Positions 1 to 7,370 of a stretch of 7,370 nt of DNA are shown here, piece by piece. The position numbers and the translations under genes are program-made. The DNA lies in the IMG/VR virus record IMGVR_UViG_2681813313_000015, positions 1 to 7,370 of that record; one strand, 5' to 3'. This stretch comes from a virus (taxonomy: Duplodnaviria; Heunggongvirae; Uroviricota; Caudoviricetes). Positions within the stretch are counted from its first letter, which is position 1; every line of letters begins with the position of its first letter. The notes below the pieces were generated by a model that ran no database searches, was not told the DNA's origin, and saw only the letters and a program-made list of their open reading frames with translations.

Positions 1-1020
1 CTACTTGCTAACCACGAGCGGCAGATCCAGTGTTGGTGTGATTTTTGTTTTACGATCGTAAATCAACACCTGATTTTCTGTTTTATGCCCGCTGAAAATT
101 TGTTTGTCGCGACTGCTGCCTTCGTAATCTGAGATCCCCTTAGCTTTTATGTCGTGAAAATTGCACCCGAACGGAACGCCAACTTTTTGCTCGGCTGAGC
201 GTTTAGCCTGATTCCACCAGTTGTTCAGCGTTTTAGCTATGACTTTCCCGCCTTTGGTTGTATTGATCACATATTCGCATGTACAGGAAGATACATTTCG
301 GGCTAACTGGATCGCTGTACGTAATCGCGGTGACCATTCCTTGATTTGTTTGGTGCCGGTTTTGTTTTGCTCAATGTAGATCCCTTTATCCATAATATCC
401 TGCCATTTCAACTCAAGCACATCACCGAGCCTTGCCGCACAGAGATAGGAAATCTCCATTGCAATGCGTAACTGTGGAATTGCTTCCGCATATATCGCTG
501 CATACTGTTCATCGGTGATGTAAACAGTGCGGGCTTTAAGAGAGAATTTTCTGACTCCTTTACATGGGTTATTCTTCACGTATCCACGCTCATATCCCCA
601 CCCGTATACTCGACTCAGGCTTGCCAGTTCATGATTTGCCTGGGTCTTGCTCTCAAGCCCTCGTTTATCCATGAAAATTCTTACCTGCTCAGTTTTGACA
701 TTATCAGCAAGCACTTTTCCGAATACCATCAGCAACGCCTTCTGATGTTGTCGATAATCTTTTTGGGTTCGGGGGGCCAGTTCTGTAAATGCAGGGGAGT
801 CTATAAACATGTGCCATAATTTAGCTACGGTCATTATGTTGTGGAGTTTTGCTTTTTCCAGTTCATAATTTTGCCAGACTTTAGCTACGCTGGTTTTCCG
901 CACTCTTCCTAGCCCTATAGTTCTTGTACTTCCTTCTGGTTTCCACACGTAACTGTAACCATTCGATCTAACCCGCGGTGGCAGTACATTATCTTTTTTA
1001 TTTTTTCTTGGTCTTCCCAT
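1..1020 (-). CDS. int: Phage integrase, tyrosine recombinase (lambda Int family)
   Basis: 339-aa ORF. N-terminus MGRPRK..LPPRVRSNGYSYVW..GLGR resembles the lambda Int arm-binding region. Catalytic region aligns by eye to lambda Int: AARLGD (R212), EQNKTG (K235), FHDIK (H308-x-x-R311 position), SGHK (H333), LIYDRK (Y342). Stop codon at 1-3. Confidence 0.9.
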   Translation of the reverse strand: MGRPRKNKKDNVLPPRVRSNGYSYVWKPEGSTRTIGLGRVRKTSVAKVWQNYELEKAKLHNIMTVAKLWHMFIDSPAFTELAPRTQKDYRQHQKALLMVFGKVLADNVKTEQVRIFMDKRGLESKTQANHELASLSRVYGWGYERGYVKNNPCKGVRKFSLKARTVYITDEQYAAIYAEAIPQLRIAMEISYLCAARLGDVLELKWQDIMDKGIYIEQNKTGTKQIKEWSPRLRTAIQLARNVSSCTCEYVINTTKGGKVIAKTLNNWWNQAKRSAEQKVGVPFGCNFHDIKAKGISDYEGSSRDKQIFSGHKTENQVLIYDRKTKITPTLDLPLVVSK

Positions 1021-1240
1021 TATTCAGCGCCTCAAAATCGGGTTCAGCAGAAACCAGTTCAGATGTTTTTGGCATCGTTGTCAGTCCGTGTGGAATATCC
1101 CTGCGTAGAACTATTGGTTCGTTTTTAGGACCGATTACAAATGGGATGCCGTGCAGTCTTAACTGGTGTTGCTGTTTTGTGTATCGCTCGTATTTCGTGA
1201 TCTCTTTAATCTCTGCTGGAGATAGAGTTAATTCGTACAT
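998..1240 (-). CDS. xis: Excisionase-like protein (Xis)
   Basis: 80-aa ORF immediately upstream of int and overlapping its start by 23 nt, the classic xis-int arrangement. The N-terminus MYELTL and basic C-terminus NGKTKKK resemble lambda Xis (MYLTLQEW...NGKKAKS). Only a weak AAGG is present upstream. Confidence 0.6.
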   Translation of the reverse strand: MYELTLSPAEIKEITKYERYTKQQHQLRLHGIPFVIGPKNEPIVLRRDIPHGLTTMPKTSELVSAEPDFEALNNGKTKKK

Positions 1241-1307
1241 GTGGTCACGTGCCTTTACAGCATGACCGCCGCCACTGTAGCTGGTGGGCGGCGATATGGG
1301 TTGAACA

Positions 1308-3782
1308 TTAAAAATCAGCCTGACTCGGGATCAGTTTTTGCCAGATAGCTGAAACGTATTTTGCCTGATAACGGGCGTCATCAAGTGCATTATGGCGCTC
1401 ACCTTCGAATGGGATAGCAGTTCTGGCATCGAAGTCTATGGCTTTCCCCAGCTCAACGATTGTGCGTACATCGCGATCGTTGTAGTAACGCCACGGGCAG
1501 GGGATCCCCTGCCGTTCGTATGAACGGCGCAAAATCGTGTTGTCGAAGTTGGCTCCATTTCCCCAGACCTGAACAAAAAATTCACCGGAGTTTTCGTCGA
1601 TAAATTCCCGCAATTGTAACAGTGCATCATCTAACGGGATTTCATCGGTCATAATGGCAGACTGCGCTTCACGTGATTGCTTCAGCCACCTTTTAATGAC
1701 GTCACGATCAATGACTCCGCCAGCAGTTTCCAGATCGATAGTCTTACTAAATTCCGGTCCCATATCTCCGGTTTGCGGATCGAAAAATATTGCACCTATT
1801 GAGATAATCGGGGCATCCGGATTTTTTCCCATGGTTTTAAGGTCGATCATTAGATGGTCACACGTCCTGCTGGTGGATGTGATAACGTGATGACCGTTCA
1901 CCGTAATTAAGGGATCTGCCGTCTCGCCAGTTTCACTATCGCTGGCGTGGTCCTGAGCGCTGCCAGCATTCTCCTTGTGTGGATGTTCAGCGCCTTCCAT
2001 TTTCTCCGAATCGTCTTCCTGAACTTCAACCTGGTTCTTGTCATCGAATGTTTCCTGGTATGTTGCGTCGCCCATCACCGCGCCACAATCAGGGCAGTTG
2101 CCGCCGCCGGTCTGACCGCAGGCGGTGCAGATTTTTTCCGGTTCCTGTTGCGCTACTGGTTCAGGTTGTTTCGTTTCTGGCTCGTTTTGTAACGCATTTG
2201 GGCTGTTTTGTTCCGCTTTCTGGCCGTTCTGTTCCGTTTCTTGCTGGTTCTGATTCACTGAATCGCGGGTTTCAATCCCCTTCACCCATTTCGGATCATT
2301 CGGGTCGCTAATCCCTGCAACAAATTCACCACGTGATACAGCAAGCAACTTATTGGCGTCAGGCTGGCTGATATTGGCTGCCTGCATAATTTTGTTTACT
2401 TCGTCAGCGGTAACTTTTACCGGCTCTGGTTGTGCGATCGTGTCAGATGCACCAGTATTTTGTTGTGAACCTGAGTACGTGCCGTTTTTACGTGCGAAGT
2501 ATTCCTCTTTTGTGATTTCCGTAGCTCCCAGGGCCAGTGCTTTTTCCAGACCAGAAAGTTTGTTTGCGCGACCGTATTTTTCGCCGTCCTTATCAGTGAA
2601 AAGGAAGTAGAACGGTCCCTCACGCTCTACAGATGGTTCGTCTTCCACTTCGCATTCGGTTTTTTCGTTGTCCGGCATTGCCGTTTCCACTGCATCAGTT
2701 TCTGGTACTGGTGACGGGAGAGTACCAGCTGTGCCCTGATTTGTTCCTTCGTCATCTTCAAACACGCCCTTGGTAGTCAGGTATTCAGTGATGTATTTGT
2801 TCAGTGCTACGGGATCTTTGTGAATGTCGATCGGACGCTCACGGACAAGGCCAAAAATAGTCTGACGGTCGTAGCGAACGGCATCGGGTTGTTTGCGCAT
2901 TGATGCGGAAATGTGCTTCCAGTCTTCGCGATCTTTGTCGATAACTTCATTTTTTGCCCAGCGATGGATGCTGCCGTCAATGTTTCCGGTATCAATATCG
3001 CCAGGCCAGAGAGCGTAGGCCAGTTCTTCATCCAGCGTTTTCCATGTCTGCTTGTATTCGCGACAAATGGCGGCAGTGACTGGGTTGATTTTTCCTGCTG
3101 AGTTTTCAGTGTTCTGTTGATTGACTCTGGCGCTGGCGAGATCAACAACAGACGTGTATTTTCCAGTCTCTTTGCGCTCTGCGTCCTGCCGTTTTTTCCA
3201 GTTACGTAATTCAGCCTGAATTTCGGGCCATTTGGCACCCGGATTACATTTGTGTTTAACCCATCCGATAGCGAACAGTTTGCGTTCCGGATACATAGCG
3301 TTAATTTCAGGCGTTTTCATCAGTGCTTCAACGATATGCCCGTCAAAGGTAGCAACGTCTTCCTGCAGTAATTCCTGCGCGTCAATCGCCATATCAACGG
3401 TGATGTTTTCACATGTACCGAACTTAACCAGGACCGCGTTCTGTACTTCAAGGGACAGCTTGTCAAAATTGACGTTCATCGGATCGGATTCTGGTTCGAC
3501 CGGAATAAAGGAAGCGGATTCCTCATCCCAGCGGTTTTCCTGCATATATTCAGCATCCCAGGAATCGAGGGCAGGGCGGGGTATACCGGGTTTATCCTCG
3601 CAAACAAGAAATTTATAAGCGCAGTCCTGAGCAGCCGGATAATGTTCCAGGAATTGCCAGTGAAATTTTGCGCGGGCGCGACGTTCATCACCGGCTTCAA
3701 TGGCAGTGGCTACAGCGACGGCACCTTCTTCCTTTATTGCCTGTTCATCAGGAATAGCAGCGCAAATAAAGACCTTACTCAT
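1308..3782 (-). CDS. Large multidomain prophage exonuclease (exodeoxyribonuclease VIII/RecE-like annotation family) with C-terminal DEDDh-type 3'-5' exonuclease domain and an internal zinc ribbon
   Basis: 824-aa uninterrupted ORF with ATG at 3780-3782 and GAGG about 10 nt upstream. C-terminal ~190 aa (nt ~1311-1892) carries DnaQ-like motifs: MIDLKTMG...IISIGAI, TIDLETAGG, GNGANFD, HNALDDA. Zinc ribbon C552-x2-C555-x6-C562-x2-C565 at nt 2088-2129. Central region LLAVSRGEFVAGISDPNDPKWVKGI is recalled as typical of ExoVIII-annotated prophage proteins; that recollection is unverified. Confidence 0.8.
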   Translation of the reverse strand: MSKVFICAAIPDEQAIKEEGAVAVATAIEAGDERRARAKFHWQFLEHYPAAQDCAYKFLVCEDKPGIPRPALDSWDAEYMQENRWDEESASFIPVEPESDPMNVNFDKLSLEVQNAVLVKFGTCENITVDMAIDAQELLQEDVATFDGHIVEALMKTPEINAMYPERKLFAIGWVKHKCNPGAKWPEIQAELRNWKKRQDAERKETGKYTSVVDLASARVNQQNTENSAGKINPVTAAICREYKQTWKTLDEELAYALWPGDIDTGNIDGSIHRWAKNEVIDKDREDWKHISASMRKQPDAVRYDRQTIFGLVRERPIDIHKDPVALNKYITEYLTTKGVFEDDEGTNQGTAGTLPSPVPETDAVETAMPDNEKTECEVEDEPSVEREGPFYFLFTDKDGEKYGRANKLSGLEKALALGATEITKEEYFARKNGTYSGSQQNTGASDTIAQPEPVKVTADEVNKIMQAANISQPDANKLLAVSRGEFVAGISDPNDPKWVKGIETRDSVNQNQQETEQNGQKAEQNSPNALQNEPETKQPEPVAQQEPEKICTACGQTGGGNCPDCGAVMGDATYQETFDDKNQVEVQEDDSEKMEGAEHPHKENAGSAQDHASDSETGETADPLITVNGHHVITSTSRTCDHLMIDLKTMGKNPDAPIISIGAIFFDPQTGDMGPEFSKTIDLETAGGVIDRDVIKRWLKQSREAQSAIMTDEIPLDDALLQLREFIDENSGEFFVQVWGNGANFDNTILRRSYERQGIPCPWRYYNDRDVRTIVELGKAIDFDARTAIPFEGERHNALDDARYQAKYVSAIWQKLIPSQADF

Positions 3783-3868
3783 TTTGTTTTAACCTCATTA
3801 CAGATTTCAGGGTGAACGAATCCCTGCCATTGCTGGCATTTTTAATCCGTTGGTATGGTGTTAATATG

Positions 3869-3888
3869 GCTGGAGGGTTATCCAGCCG
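3869..3888. other. Perfect 7-bp stem hairpin GGCTGGA-gggtta-TCCAGCC overlapping the stop codon of the 62-aa gene, upstream of the exonuclease gene
   Basis: Direct reading. A T-rich run (GGTGTTTCGTTATT) follows on the plus strand only. Role unknown. Confidence 0.4.
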
Positions 3889-4066
3889 GTGTTTCGTTAT
3901 TCAGGTACAGCGATACTTTTTTTACCGGGAGGCATTCACCAGAAATTTTTTGCTCGTCTCTTGCCTGGAGGCAGGATTCTTTACTGGCATAAATTCTGGT
4001 AATCACATTCTGTGATTCACCCGTTATAAGAAAAACCGTCATCATCAGTGCAAATGCTGAAGTCAT
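3878..4066 (-). CDS. Hypothetical small protein with hydrophobic N-terminal segment (possible membrane or secreted peptide)
   Basis: 62-aa ORF. Its ATG overlaps the stop of the upstream gene (ATGA on the minus strand at 4063-4066). SD-like GGAG lies 7 nt upstream. N-terminus MTSAFALMMTVFLITG is hydrophobic; two Cys residues. Function unknown. Confidence 0.5.
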   Translation of the reverse strand: MTSAFALMMTVFLITGESQNVITRIYASKESCLQARDEQKISGECLPVKKVSLYLNNETPAG

Positions 4067-4251
4067 TGACGTTCTCCGAAAATACCAAGTTCAAGAAGAG
4101 CAATTCGGGAAAGTATGGAATTATCATTGAGCAGATAAGGCTCATATTTCCTCATATTAATGGCATCTTCAGTAAACTCCCGGTTACTGAGCAGAACACC
4201 AATATCAAAACAACCTTCAGACGTATTAACGTTTGGTAATAACGTTTCCAT
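4063..4251 (-). CDS. Hypothetical protein (62 aa from ATG at 4251; a GTG-initiated 97-aa form would extend to 4356)
   Basis: The ATG at 4249-4251 is preceded by GAGGA with 7-nt spacing. The stop overlaps the start of the next gene (ATGA), indicating translational coupling. No recognisable motif. Confidence 0.5.
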   Translation of the reverse strand: METLLPNVNTSEGCFDIGVLLSNREFTEDAINMRKYEPYLLNDNSILSRIALLELGIFGERQ

Positions 4252-4283
4252 TATCGCGTCCTCAACAATGAATTTTGTGATGC

Positions 4284-4327
4284 GGTGCCTGGTGCCTCCA
4301 GGTGACGTTAACCAGTTAACAATTAAC
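4284..4327. repeat. Short tandem repeats: GGTGCCT x2 (4284-4297) and three TTAAC units (4308-4312, 4316-4320, 4323-4327)
   Basis: Direct reading. Lies upstream of the ATG at 4251, inside the GTG-extended form of that ORF. Confidence 0.5.
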
Positions 4328-4503
4328 GCCGGATACAGAGAATCCACCCATAACACTGTTTTTGGTTTTAACTGTTCCGCGTGCGCTCAGCCGCATTCAC
4401 CGCATCACAAAATTCACTTTAAAAACGGCGGCAGAGCAGTCACGGAGTAAAACTGATACCGCCAAACGTCACCAGAAAATTGATAACAGAGGGCGTTGCA
4501 GCG

Positions 4504-4540
4504 GGGTTGTCACTTAAGCGTATGGTCAACCTGACAACCC
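4504..4540. repeat. Perfect 9-bp inverted repeat GGGTTGTCA-N19-TGACAACCC in noncoding DNA
   Basis: Direct reading of the sequence. Not followed by a T-tract on either strand, so it is not a canonical terminator. Confidence 0.6.
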
Positions 4541-4754
4541 GGTGTCCTCAACGGGGGAAGGAATAACCCCGCCATACTTACCGCCGCGCCATTTCGCGGG
4601 TTGCCACAACCGGAAGCGCACGGTCGAATTAAATTTAACGACACCGTACAGTGAGACGAACTTCGCCGTGCGCTTTCGTGTTGTGTGCCTGCTTTTAACC
4701 ACGTCAGGCGAGGTGGTATCCTTCTTATCCCGAATAACCAAGAAGGAAATCTAT

Positions 4755-4955
4755 ATGACTAAAGAAGAATTTGTCTCTTATATTTTTGATAAAACGGTTG
4801 AAATGTATGCCGCTACTTACGGGTCCTGTAATCCTCTGAATAAACCAGAGGGGAAAGATGATTTCGACAAAATTTACCGCTTCTTGGAGGACCGCTATAT
4901 CAAAAGGTTAGAGGACGCAGGGATCAAATCCCCAGTGAAGTCACCATTGTCCTGA
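4755..4955 (+). CDS. Hypothetical 66-aa protein, moron-like gene convergent to the early-left operon
   Basis: ATG at 4755 preceded by AAGGA (4743-4747) with 7-nt spacing. AT-rich composition. The in-frame upstream extension (from GTG at 4542) has no RBS. Its 3' end overlaps the convergent minus-strand gene by 32 nt. Confidence 0.5.
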   Translation: MTKEEFVSYIFDKTVEMYAATYGSCNPLNKPEGKDDFDKIYRFLEDRYIKRLEDAGIKSPVKSPLS

Positions 4956-5289
4956 GAACTTGCAGGACGTCATGATCGTAACTTCCATCCAAACCGCGAC
5001 GGCAAATTGCTTCTCGTATTACCGGAAGCAGTTCGCTGGAAATCTCGGTGCATATTTCACCTGATAATACGCTTGGCTCAAGTGAGAATATTGGTGAACT
5101 TACGGTCTTGGTCTCGACAGTTTCAGAGTCAGTGCCAACATTATAAAGCTCAACGAAAGCGGTCTTGATTTTCCGGGCCAGATCTTTTGCTGGCTCGCTT
5201 GCAATATCTTTCCCGATTTCTCGCAGCACAGAATGCAATGTATGAGCTGCTGTTTTCTGTACATCAGACGGTAAATCTTTAAATTCCAT
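4924..5289 (-). CDS. Hypothetical mildly acidic protein (121 aa from ATG at 5289; alternative ATG at 5301 gives 125 aa)
   Basis: The ATG at 5287-5289 is preceded by GAGG with 6-nt spacing. The alternative ATG at 5299-5301 overlaps the upstream stop (TGATG). Second gene of a coupled pair downstream of the putative PL/OL. No recognisable motif. Confidence 0.55.
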   Translation of the reverse strand: MEFKDLPSDVQKTAAHTLHSVLREIGKDIASEPAKDLARKIKTAFVELYNVGTDSETVETKTVSSPIFSLEPSVLSGEICTEISSELLPVIREAICRRGLDGSYDHDVLQVLRTMVTSLGI

Positions 5290-5300
5290 CGTCAGCCTCA

Positions 5301-5453
5301 TCAGTCAGTGTTTCTGGCTAACCAGCAACGCGCGCCAGATCCGGTTTTAAACGTTTTGCTTTTGGTATATGTCATCGCGGTGAACGTACCGCCCTGGTTG
5401 GGGAACACGCCGTACACCAGAGATTCGTTGTTGCCAAGATCGATAGTATCCAT
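5301..5453 (-). CDS. Hypothetical small protein (50 aa from ATG at 5453; the track's 81-aa form starting at 5546 is probably not translated)
   Basis: The ATG at 5451-5453 is preceded by GAGGT with 4-5-nt spacing. The upstream ATG at 5546 lies inside the operator and promoter spacer and has no SD. Confidence 0.4.
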   Translation of the reverse strand: MDTIDLGNNESLVYGVFPNQGGTFTAMTYTKSKTFKTGSGARCWLARNTD

Positions 5454-5530
5454 GTTGACCTCATTTCCCCTTAACGCCGGGGTAGCGGAACTGTTTGCTG
5501 AGAACACCGTGCGGTGTCTTGATGGATCGT

Positions 5531-5582
5531 AATTTAGTTTTCTCATGAATATTGGTCAAGTACTTTTAATGAGAAAACTCAA
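5531..5582 (-). promoter_or_regulatory. OL/PL-like operator pair and leftward early promoter
   Basis: Two inverted copies of the operator motif (5534-5546 as the complement of ATGAGAAAACTAA; 5569-5582 ATGAGAAAACTCAA) flank a 22-bp spacer. On the minus strand: -35 TTGACC (5559-5554), 17-bp spacer, -10 TAAATT (5536-5531). Confidence 0.55.
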
Positions 5583-5587
5583 TATTT

Positions 5588-5627
5588 AATGCAAAATAAA
5601 GCCAATACATTGAAATGTAAGGCTTTA
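5588..5627 (-). terminator. Putative intrinsic terminator downstream of the repressor gene
   Basis: Interrupted hairpin (outer stem TAAAGCC/GGCTTTA at 5597-5603 and 5621-5627; inner stem TACAT/ATGTA) followed on the minus strand by UUUUGCAUU. The stem is AT-rich, so it is weak. Confidence 0.35.
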
Positions 5628-5644
5628 AAATTTGTGAAGGGGGG

Positions 5645-6052
5645 TTATTGATGTTTGTTACGTTTGCGAGCTTCTAGTAGCTCGGTGAATAGGCGATTAA
5701 AATTCTCAACGCGGGCACGGAGTTCGCTGATTTGTGCTTGCTGCTCTGATTTTGGAAGTGCGCGATACAATCGCAACATCTCCAACTCATCTTCCGATAA
5801 GTCTAAGGCGCTGTTGAGTGCAACTGGTGGATCTGGTGTTTTATCCTCGTCACCAAACAGTATCCAAGTTGGTGAACATTGCAATACCTCAGCCAGGCGA
5901 TGCAAATTTTGCCCGCGCGGGGCTGTATGGTCGCTTTCCCATAGTGAAATTGATGAGCCAGATACGCCAGCAGCTTTGCTTAAATCGTTTTGACTTAAAC
6001 CAACCTGTTTGCGTCTTTCTCTAATTCGTTGACCTAAAGTTTTCTCGTTCAT
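5645..6052 (-). CDS. Prophage immunity repressor, XRE/cI-type HTH, without an S24 peptidase domain (RacR-like)
   Basis: 135-aa ORF. N-terminal HTH_3-type motif (GQRIRERRKQVGLSQNDLSKAAGVSGSSISLWE). Divergent from a Cro-like gene across a 77-bp region carrying palindromic operators. No Ala-Gly/Ser-Lys autocleavage module was seen. Confidence 0.85.
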   Translation of the reverse strand: MNEKTLGQRIRERRKQVGLSQNDLSKAAGVSGSSISLWESDHTAPRGQNLHRLAEVLQCSPTWILFGDEDKTPDPPVALNSALDLSEDELEMLRLYRALPKSEQQAQISELRARVENFNRLFTELLEARKRNKHQ

Positions 6053-6073
6053 ATTTAGATATCTTAATAACCC

Positions 6074-6116
6074 TTGACTTGAGATTCCTTGAGTGATTAC
6101 TATTGAGAAAACTCAA
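6074..6116. promoter_or_regulatory. OR-like divergent promoter/operator region between repressor and cro-like gene
   Basis: Palindrome TTGAGAAAACTCAA at 6103-6116, extra TTGAG half-sites at 6079-6083 and 6089-6093, and -35-like TTGACT at 6074-6079. No clean -10 could be placed. Confidence 0.6.
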
Positions 6117-6129
6117 CTTTGGAGGGGTG

Positions 6130-6357
6130 ATGTTTAAATCAGACGTAATTAATTTTTATGGGACGAAAGCCAAAGTAGCGAAAGCTGCTGGTGTTGATCC
6201 ATCTGCTGTTTCTCAATGGGGGGAACTGGTTCCTGAAGGTCGCGCGATGCGCCTGCAAGAGGCATCCGGCGGGGAACTTCAGTACGACCCCAAAGTTTAT
6301 GACGAATATCGTAAGGCAAAGCGGGCGGGGCGGTTGAACAATGAAAATCACCCCTGA
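6130..6357 (+). CDS. Cro/YdaS-like small HTH regulator
   Basis: 75 aa from ATG at 6130 with GGAGG 4 nt upstream. Contains the motif FYGTKAKVAKAAGVDPSAVSQW typical of Cro/YdaS-like proteins. The track's TTG start at 6103 would place the first codons inside the operator palindrome. Confidence 0.8.
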   Translation: MFKSDVINFYGTKAKVAKAAGVDPSAVSQWGELVPEGRAMRLQEASGGELQYDPKVYDEYRKAKRAGRLNNENHP

Positions 6358-6892
6358 ACAGGTTTGTGAGGCTCTGGATGCCTGGGTATGCCGACCAGGA
6401 ATGACACAGGAGCAGGCGACGATATTAATCACGGAAGCATTCTGGGCTCTGAAAGAACGCCCGAACATCGATGTTCAACGCGTCACGTTTAATGATGGCG
6501 AGGTTGATCAACGGGCGCTGGGCGTTAACCGGGTGAAGATATTCGAACGCTGGAAAGCTATCGACACCAGGGATAAGCGGAAAAAATTCACGGCGCTGAT
6601 TCCGGCAATTATGGAGGCTATCCGAATTAGTGATTTCAGGCTGTATCGTGAGATCAGTGATGGAAAAAGCATTACGTACATGATCGCCGGATTAAACAAA
6701 GAATATGGCGATGTGGTGGAGTCCGGGCTGCTTTTTGCGGATCCAGCTGTTGTGGAACGTGAGACTGACGAGCTTATAGAAAAAGCTATTGCTTTCAAGC
6801 ATGCGTATCGTCAGCAATATCAATATTACTTTGCAGATAAACAAATGTCTGCCAGGGGTTCGTATGAGTATCGATGCACTACGATGGGCTAA
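6341..6892 (+). CDS. cII-like/YdaT-family protein
   Basis: 183-aa ORF overlapping the cro-like stop by 17 nt. The position (third gene of a repressor-Cro-cII-like trio) and the segment IFERWKAIDTRDKRKKFTALIPAIMEAI resemble Rac YdaT as recalled; the family assignment is unverified. Confidence 0.65.
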   Translation: MKITPEQVCEALDAWVCRPGMTQEQATILITEAFWALKERPNIDVQRVTFNDGEVDQRALGVNRVKIFERWKAIDTRDKRKKFTALIPAIMEAIRISDFRLYREISDGKSITYMIAGLNKEYGDVVESGLLFADPAVVERETDELIEKAIAFKHAYRQQYQYYFADKQMSARGSYEYRCTTMG

Positions 6893-7370
6893 AAAGGTGA
6901 AAACCGGCAGTTCATCCAGTAAGTCAGTATTGACCTGGCTTGCTGATATGTGCGGTGCCGATTTGTGTGCATACCCGTCTGTATCTGCCCTGGCAGAAGT
7001 AACGGAACTGAACAAAAAGACAGTGCAGGACAGCTTACGACACCTGATGGAGATTGGGTTAATTGTTGATACCGGTGAGAGAAAAGGCAGAACAAAGCAA
7101 ATTGTGGTGTACCGACTTATCGGTGTAGAAGAAAGTGTTGCCGAACCTGAATACACCCAAAAACGGGAGTCTTTAAAGGTGGGTAAAATTGGTGCTGTTA
7201 ATAAAAACAGTACCGAAAATGGTTATGTTTCAGCACAAAACAGACCCAAAAACGGAACTCTTAGCTGCATGAACCGCCCCGGGTTTCCTGGAGAGTGTTT
7301 TATCTGTGAACTCAGGCTGCCAGATCATCGTTTCCGATGGAAGCATAATAAGCTTTTTCTGCTTCTGCCG
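6864..7370 (+). CDS. Phage replication initiation protein, N-terminal HTH domain (lambda O-like role); 3'-truncated by the window end
   Basis: Read by hand: ATG at 6864 preceded by AGGGG (5-nt spacing), 169 codons with no stop to position 7370. N-terminus MSIDALRWAKKVK...LADMCGADLCAYPSVSALAEVTELNKKTVQDSLRHLMEIGLIV is typical of HTH replication initiators. Absent from the ORF track, presumably because it has no stop in the window. Confidence 0.75.
   Translation, partial: MSIDALRWAKKVKTGSSSSKSVLTWLADMCGADLCAYPSVSALAEVTELNKKTVQDSLRHLMEIGLIVDTGERKGRTKQIVVYRLIGVEESVAEPEYTQKRESLKVGKIGAVNKNSTENGYVSAQNRPKNGTLSCMNRPGFPGECFICELRLPDHRFRWKHNKLFLLLP
7155..7258. repeat. Iteron-like direct repeats CCCAAAAACGG inside the replication gene
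   Basis: Exact 11-mer at 7156-7166 and 7245-7255, with a degenerate copy CCGAAAATGG at 7213-7222. The copies fall in different codon phases of the ORF. Confidence 0.35.

Follow-up and report, generated by a model that had tools for sequence, protein, structure and literature searches.

A small conserved gene antisense to a dicBF-type early-left operon and the possible cargo slot that holds it

Antisense accessory genes and the dicBF operon

In phage lambda, sieB (34482-35036, plus strand) and N (35037-35438, minus strand) are convergent and abutting. The sieB gene is reportedly expressed in the lysogen from its own promoter (Ranade & Poteete 1993). In P22, according to the work cited in PMC7067206, the early transcript is antisense to sieB, and the sas RNA and Esc give self-immunity. 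Genes encoded antisense to a lytic operon are, typically, accessory genes that the lysogen expresses (PMC7067206). An antisense RNA from a prophage can also exclude phage, as does STnc6030 of BTP1 (Owen et al. 2020, PMC7067206). Gene A, the subject of this report, is an uncharacterised addition to this known class of antisense prophage accessory genes. It encodes a 66-amino-acid (aa) protein on the plus strand (4755-4955) of a 7,370-nucleotide (nt) stretch of phage DNA (positions 1 to 7,370 of record IMGVR_UViG_2681813313_000015; hereafter the window), and there is an even chance that it fills a slot which lambdoid phages of the DicA/YdaS type reserve for antisense cargo in their early-left (dicBF) operon.

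Like sieB of lambda and P22, gene A sits on the opposite strand of a PL-type operon and is convergent with the 3' end of an early gene. Its slot can be seen as the positional equivalent of lambda sieB, the analogy being one of position only. SieB is a membrane protein of about 190 aa, whereas the 66-aa product of gene A is a predicted soluble helical hairpin, and no sequence or fold similarity between the two was detected with Pfam, NCBIfam, PADLOC or Foldseek. Gene A is not known to confer exclusion, as SieB does. Unlike sieB, gene A shares 32 nt with its neighbour and is inherited along with the C-terminal domain of that neighbour. The antisense morons STMMW_20121 of ST64B and STnc6030 of BTP1 are similar to gene A in opposing a lytic operon, in their patchy distribution, in an apparent promoter of their own and in a possible antisense RNA effect on the lytic transcript. 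Expression of these two loci is proven by lysogen transcriptomes, whereas gene A is known from sequence alone. The slot of gene A also has a conserved promoter and leader with variable cargo, which is undescribed for those loci.

Convergent promoters form switches in several temperate phages, namely PRE/PR and OOP/cII in lambda, Psar/Pant in P22 and pR/pL in 186. Two promoters would face each other in the window as well, the candidate promoter of gene A and a dicBp-like early-left promoter, so that firing of one should interfere with the other and yield complementary RNAs. The known switches produce non-coding RNAs or lysis-lysogeny regulators from promoters that are tens to a few hundred bp apart, whereas gene A encodes a conserved protein that does not look regulatory and lies about 800 nt from dicBp.

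The window is the live-phage version of the dicBF early-left operon studied in K-12 (PMC10448788), since DicF RNA and homologues of DicB, YdfA and YdfD lie downstream of a DicA-like repressor. The context gives Pfam matches to DicB, DUF1391, DUF1482 and HTH_3 and an Rfam match to DicF, and over positions 4300-5400 the window is 99.4% identical to mEp460_ev081, a functional temperate phage. In the Qin prophage, the corresponding operon (ydfABC-dicF-dicB-ydfDE; Faubladier 1990; Ragunathan 2023, PMC10448788) shares with the window the DicA-like repressor, a DicC/Cro homologue, ydfA, DicF, dicB, ydfD and a stem fitting the RNase III site. It differs in that ydfB and ydfC of K-12 stand where the window has gene B and the convergent gene A. 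The K-12 operon is expressed as a polycistronic transcript from dicBp (PMC10448788), and the K-12 studies sought only sense-strand promoters within the operon.

Gene A, its upstream region and the cargo slot

Gene A (MTKEEFVSYIFDKTVE...PVKSPLS) extends from an ATG at 4755-4757 to a TGA at 4953-4955 (66 codons), with the Shine-Dalgarno (SD) sequence AAGGA (4743-4747, plus strand) 7 nt ahead of the ATG. These features had been noticed in an original prediction made by a model from the letters of the window, and RefSeq annotates both this gene and its convergent neighbour, gene B. The protein is identical to WP_000159335.1 from E. coli B. In that genome RefSeq places it as the sole plus-strand coding sequence between the repressor and int, amid minus-strand early-left genes, which agrees with its description as the only plus-strand gene between the immunity region and int. 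The gene was also described as AT-rich, and this is true to a mild degree (40.8% GC versus 46.6% for the window).

The phrog_34441 profile matches gene A over residues 1-66 of 66 (E 1.5e-50), and its relatives P0018, P0011 and P0044 match the same profile. A search of 5.8 billion proteins returned 19 clusters; full-length homologues at 89, 88, 73, 57 and 54% identity are all 65-66 aa. An exhaustive profile search of 1.84 billion representatives found 13 in total, including a 73-aa relative at about 41% identity, and length is kept at 65-73 aa among homologues of 41-98% identity. The family is real but rare. Outside the overlap with gene B, the pairwise ratio of nonsynonymous to synonymous substitution rates (dN/dS) is 0.08-0.24, with differences mostly at third codon positions, and the ATG and SD are kept in 16 of 16 distinct upstream variants. 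The original prediction had named conservation in related prophages as a check on the gene, and the homologues were found to be kept there under this constraint. Since length is maintained among the homologues and dN/dS is 0.08-0.24, gene A is almost certainly a real small protein gene.

The AlphaFold2 model of the protein (pLDDT 82.8) shows two helices (residues 3-22 and 31-54) packed as a hairpin, followed by a flexible tail. The protein has a pI of 5.3 and is predicted to be soluble, the maximum 19-residue Kyte-Doolittle hydropathy being 0.31. The gene also contains a 15-nt inverted repeat (4784-4798 and 4891-4905, plus strand; 87% complementary). Across divergent loci, nucleotide identity is 90% over its first 16 codons and 62% in the middle of the gene.

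The region of about 400 bp upstream of gene A (4357-4754) had been taken as noncoding DNA, a point used to argue for independent transcription. That argument was wrong, because the small RNA DicF and its RNase III stem lie there, together with a conserved promoter-like block. DicF (4426-4477, minus strand) is a full-length match to Rfam RF00039 (72.5 bits against a gathering threshold of 48, E 5.6e-15). A 19-bp stem in the early-left RNA (4605-4685, minus strand; arms 4685-4665 and 4624-4605) was found with RNAalifold, which gave 19 pairs, 4 of them compensatory, across 7 phages; it was also recovered in an inverted-repeat scan. In K-12, RNase III generates a 190-nt DicF precursor (PMC10448788). 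The predicted 5' end of that precursor, about 4614, falls inside the 3' arm of the stem, which is therefore very likely to be the known RNase III processing site.

The block is a candidate promoter for gene A (4695-4722, plus strand), recognised by motif conservation. It has a -35 TTAACC (4695-4700), a 16-nt spacer with TG at 4714-4715, as in extended -10 promoters, and a -10 TATCCT (4717-4722) that ends 32 nt before the ATG; we infer a transcription start near 4729. The pattern TTAACC-N16(TG)-TATCCT occurs once in the window and in 0 of 200 shuffles. A simple promoter scan did not list it because it scores 8/12 when the TG is not counted. About 60 nt upstream of gene A are kept in all gene A loci of at least 54% identity, more weakly in the Cedecea prophage locus L005. 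It is thus quite likely, judging from these motifs, that gene A has its own promoter.

The opposing early-left (dicBp-like) promoter, TTGACC-17-TAAATT (5531-5559, minus strand), came from the promoter scan. It is flanked by operator-like repeats (AGTTTTCTCA / TGAGAAAACTCAA) at 5532-5549 and 5566-5583, and the same repeats recur between the repressor and cro at 6038-6055 and 6101-6116. In the window, repeats of the TGAGAAAACTCAA type were found only at 5532-5583 and 6038-6116, with none near 4695-4722. Since the block is shared ahead of varied cargo and has no operators nearby, it is probably a constitutive, extended -10-type promoter that faces the dicBp-like promoter from about 800 nt away. 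A role for this promoter as a PRE-like driver of the repressor was considered and rejected: in the window, as in most loci, a read-through transcript would lie antisense to the repressor. Gene A and the repressor are co-oriented in Cedecea.

The same promoter block and SD leader (AACCAAGAAGGAAAT) are kept ahead of unrelated cargo genes in sister phages. The block precedes non-homologous convergent genes of 79 aa (L080), 76 aa (L083) and 72 aa (L018), where 31-32 nt separate the end of the -10 from the ATG, and HannyBb has it ahead of another ORF (open reading frame) at the same spacing. The 76-aa cargo of L017 has a more divergent block, 37 nt before the ATG. The motif GTGGTAT is invariant in 8 of 8 aligned loci with at least 5 different downstream genes. 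K-12-type operons such as that of Tritos lack cargo and have the block only in a variant form.

A scan of IMG/VR with the N-terminal domain of gene B extends this pattern. All nine classes of early genes with this MEFKDLP-type domain have a convergent ORF of 65-81 aa at their 3' end, overlapping it by 23-131 nt, against a background rate of about 12-19% for such ORFs. The convergent ORFs belong to at least 5 unrelated families, including phrog_10348 and phrog_21180. Slots of this class were located in L014 (2013-2631), L015 (2501-3014), L017 (2537-2969), L018 (2501-3134), L080 (2501-3104), L083 (2501-3203) and L087 (2501-2828). The convergent partners in L015, L017 and L083 look mutually related, sharing a ...TLSPE/TLTPEQ... 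motif. Taken from the aligned loci, the slot looks like a conserved promoter driving variable cargo.

The presence of gene A is patchy. Phage mEp460_ev081 has it, as does the Qin-like prophage of E. coli B and BL21; it is absent from Tritos, HannyBb and the PPompW/Stx phages, though the flanks are common to all. The original prediction regarded gene A as an independently transcribed moron. This fits a real gene with a conserved block, patchy presence and a sieB-like position, taken together; the argument from noncoding DNA fell away, and no own terminator was found.

The B-core, the overlap and the competing explanations

Gene B (4924-5289, minus strand; WP_001320327.1 of E. coli B; phrog_33007) encodes a 121-aa early-left protein that starts with MEFKD behind a GAGG SD; a 125-aa form starting at 5301 is possible. 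It consists of an N-terminal domain (aa 1-55, MEFKDLP...), a low-confidence linker and a C-terminal core of about 47 aa. The N-domain also matches phrog_9419, phrog_1363, phrog_2151 and phrog_6937, whose C-termini differ. The AlphaFold2 model of gene B is poor (pLDDT 52) and unfit for a fold search, and gene B and its relatives have no Pfam, NCBIfam, PADLOC or PDB-sequence match.

The C-terminal core (B-core; 4924-5070, minus strand; LSGE..LPVIREAI.RRGLDG.YDH.VL.VLRTM.TSLG) is present beside each gene A homologue of at least 54% identity, and this in three settings. It is fused to the MEFKDLP domain in the window, L008 and L009, with a 32-nt overlap with gene A, and to a different N-terminal half in L004 and L007, with a 56-nt overlap. 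In a Cedecea prophage (L005, L006) it stands by itself, inserted between cro and a cII-like gene as an ORF that has an SD and ATG of its own. Gene A opposes early transcription in all three. Differences between the window and Cedecea B-cores by codon position are 13, 5 and 24, a coding pattern. In IMG/VR, 61 of 61 B-core loci were on contigs that the N-domain search had retrieved as carriers of the A-type cassette. A B-core profile search of the 5.8-billion-protein set found nothing and also missed known full-length proteins, so it was uninformative. The stand-alone ORF of Cedecea L005 (3568-3897, minus strand) is without the usual stop and continues for 56 extra codons antisense through the entire gene A; it totals 109 aa, with homology limited to the first 53 aa or so.

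The coding sequences of A and B overlap tail to tail by 32 nt (4924-4955, both strands), a segment that is coding in both directions. Mean nucleotide identity across divergent loci is 78% in the overlap versus 62% in the middle of A. L011, with a distant homologue of A (41% identity), has a 35-nt overlap with a 63-aa first early gene. The predicted 32-nt overlap with the 121-aa gene was correct, and the mutually antisense nature of the transcripts follows directly from the gene geometry. The limitation of the overlap with the early operon to 32 nt did not hold. Farther downstream on this strand come dicF, dicB, exo, xis and int, and a scan of 4300-5700 on both strands for intrinsic terminators gave none. 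The early polycistronic transcript is therefore expected to run antisense to gene A over its full length.

From this arrangement we lean slightly towards a reading in which gene A is expressed in the lysogen and then shut off by convergent early transcription. In the lysogen, with dicBp kept silent by the repressor, a constitutive promoter of its own would drive gene A. Upon derepression, dicBp would fire towards gene A from about 800 nt away; this convergent transcription, together with sense-antisense RNA pairing, would silence A while B is made, so that A and the B-core would be expressed reciprocally. As a soluble two-helix hairpin, the A protein would act via binding and not catalysis. 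Its target may be a host or phage component, as for an exclusion-type accessory function. Judged about equally likely, the two-helix B-core may be its cognate partner or antidote, which would parallel the way P22 neutralises its own SieB via Esc and the sas antisense RNA. Functional coupling of A to the B-core is held tentatively, at somewhat less than even confidence.

Several observations weigh against this reading. The -10 and -35 hexamers of the candidate promoter each match at 4 of 6 positions, and the block adjoins the RNase III stem, so its conservation could partly serve the minus-strand RNA. Past the stop codon of gene A there are only hairpins of a non-terminator type, and no own terminator was found. 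A search of the literature by accession, phage name and BL21 transcription-start data gave no transcript, start or protein evidence for gene A. Homology and structure prediction, which had been recommended, provided phrog_34441 and the two-helix hairpin and no family, fold or defence match: gene A and its relatives have no Pfam, NCBIfam, PADLOC or PDB-sequence match, and Foldseek of the model against PDB and BFVD gave no match with E <1. Among close relatives the dN/dS of the B-core is about 0.6-1, from few substitutions. The 63-aa partner in L011 was considered as a B-core homologue, which was not supported, as no relation was detectable.

Natural variants also weigh on this side. Loci in which gene A or its partner is knocked out include L031, L034, L062, L063 and relatives, L059, L041 and L029. 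Gene A is disrupted with B intact in several Shigella and E. coli prophages, and commonly so in Shigella. In some loci it breaks off at codons 13-16, in several cases where the contig ends, which would be consistent with insertion elements, and protein clusters matching the truncated gene come from Shigella sonnei. Elsewhere only the last 18 codons of gene A are left and the partner is intact; conversely, a single class has a frameshifted B-core and an intact gene A. These single-gene disruptions suggest that neither A nor B strictly needs the other in the repressed prophage.

One alternative is that gene A is a stand-alone moron with an exclusion, defence or host-modulating role, expressed in the lysogen. 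Its association with the B-core would then be physical linkage, since cassettes swapped between the promoter block and the B N-domain carry everything between. It is consistent with a slot whose cargo comes from at least 5 unrelated families and whose B C-termini differ, one class having B reduced to a 52-aa N-domain, and with swap boundaries at the cargo ATG and within B. The unrelated partner of the L011 homologue and the independent loss of A and of the B-core also point this way, and there is precedent in sieB and in the antisense moron loci already described (PMC7067206). However, the Cedecea cassette that moved to the PR operon kept exactly the B-core, with a new SD and ATG, and not just the 32 nt. 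The B-core was also retained on another N-terminal half in L004 and L007, its substitutions are of the coding type (13, 5, 24), and A has no match to known defence families. This explanation is considered rather unlikely.

It is clearly improbable that the main product is an RNA or the act of transcription, with the peptide secondary. In one variant, transcription from the block would be a brake on leaky DicF, DicB, exo, xis and int, via collision or RNase III cleavage of the duplex; in another, it would give an antisense exclusion RNA against related superinfecting phages. The promoter block is kept whatever the cargo, and in every context it lies within about 800 nt downstream of the early promoter and always faces it. 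dicBp is known to fire spontaneously in subpopulations, and its products are toxic (PMC10448788). The phage-excluding prophage antisense RNA STnc6030 and the P22 sas RNA provide precedents in the examples given by PMC7067206. However, a role for the RNA only would leave the purifying selection on the A protein and the conserved SD and ATG unexplained, and K-12-type operons such as that of Tritos are well regulated with a variant of the block and no cargo.

The original prediction also suggested a toxin/antitoxin-like arrangement. A and B are two small genes that co-occur, their 3' overlap would make them mutually antisense, and the B-core is modelled with low confidence alone, as partner-dependent proteins often are. 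Nevertheless, a classic addiction module of type II or type I-like design is very unlikely, as homology, arrangement and hydropathy all speak against it. A, B and their relatives have no match to a toxin-antitoxin family in Pfam, NCBIfam or PADLOC. The genes are convergent instead of forming a co-transcribed operon, and B is under repressor control. Neither partner is hydrophobic and both are conserved genes for hydrophilic proteins, unlike the small hydrophobic toxin and non-coding antisense RNA of a type I module. The variants with A disrupted and B intact, common in Shigella, together with the one reverse class, argue against simple addiction.

Next to no credence is given to gene A as a spurious ORF across from a part of the operon that is not translated: it is short, lacks a known domain and is labelled only phrog_34441 or 'hypothetical', but its dN/dS is 0.08-0.24, its length is kept at 54-57% identity, its SD and ATG are conserved, and the same frame is found in a different operon context in Cedecea.

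Operon neighbours, distribution and significance

The DicA-like repressor of the window lies at 5645-6052 (minus strand), and the rightward genes are Cro-like (the DicC/Cro homologue) and YdaT-like. The ydfA/DUF1391 gene (minus strand) probably starts at 5453, as in the RefSeq call of a 50-aa protein. The 81-aa ORF at 5301-5546 (minus strand) that corresponds to it is probably over-extended; its DUF1391 match covers only residues 33-79, and the N-terminal extension would overlie the operators and promoter. Past DicF, the minus strand has dicB, ydfD, an 824-aa exonuclease, a DUF4224 gene and int. The 824-aa protein (1308-3782, minus strand) is labelled exonuclease VIII in related records. It has a domain match only in its C-terminal 170 aa (Rv2179c-like 3'-5' exoribonuclease), and its first 640 or so residues are acidic, low-complexity and without a family match.

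Two ORFs in the region upstream of gene A, 4526-4741 (minus strand) and 4362-4517 (plus strand), cover the DicF precursor and its probable RNase III stem; they are called in some phage records and not by PGAP, and are probably not genes. The second is a 51-aa ORF antisense to DicF that is called in mEp460_ev081. The first (71 aa, phrog_8854) was considered as ydfC and rejected, as ydfC of Tritos sits elsewhere and the stretch equals the untranslated DicF-precursor region with the RNase III stem in Tritos.

The module of the window is also present in the Qin-like cryptic prophage of E. coli B and BL21 derivatives, and occurs in 408 of 5,426 complete E. coli genomes. REL606, being an E. coli B strain, is presumably a carrier of gene A. 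A species-level genome scan returned 4 loci, 3 of them in oddly assigned metagenome-assembled genomes. These three (L101, L102 and L103) have near-identical copies of gene A in genomes named Veillonella parvula, 'Proteobacteria bacterium' (soil) and Geobacteraceae, and are most likely mis-binned enterobacterial prophage contigs.

The E. coli B strains most used in the laboratory and in evolution experiments carry gene A, and about 7.5% of complete E. coli genomes have it. If lysogens express it, gene A is a candidate phage-exclusion or host-modulating factor; alternatively, the locus may restrain DicF and DicB, the toxic inhibitors of cell division. The conserved-promoter/variable-cargo slot may be a more interesting aspect than gene A itself, though this is unproven. 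A broader proposal, regarded as doubtful, is that the slot is an undescribed diversity locus of DicA/YdaS-type lambdoid phages that exchanges effector/antidote cassettes such as A and the B-core. One flank would be the constitutive promoter and SD leader, adjoining the DicF RNase III stem, and the other would be the conserved N-domain of the first or second early-left gene. Each cassette would consist of a small antisense gene and a matching C-terminal tail for the early protein. A and the B-core would then act in a SieB/Esc-style self-immunity or as a lysis-side effector that is checked in the lysogen, with mutually exclusive expression imposed by convergent transcription. The block and leader shared by unrelated small genes, with variable early-protein tails, would make the slot easy to recognise when mining for small prophage accessory proteins, and it would offer a natural setting in which to study convergent transcription within an operon requiring read-through.

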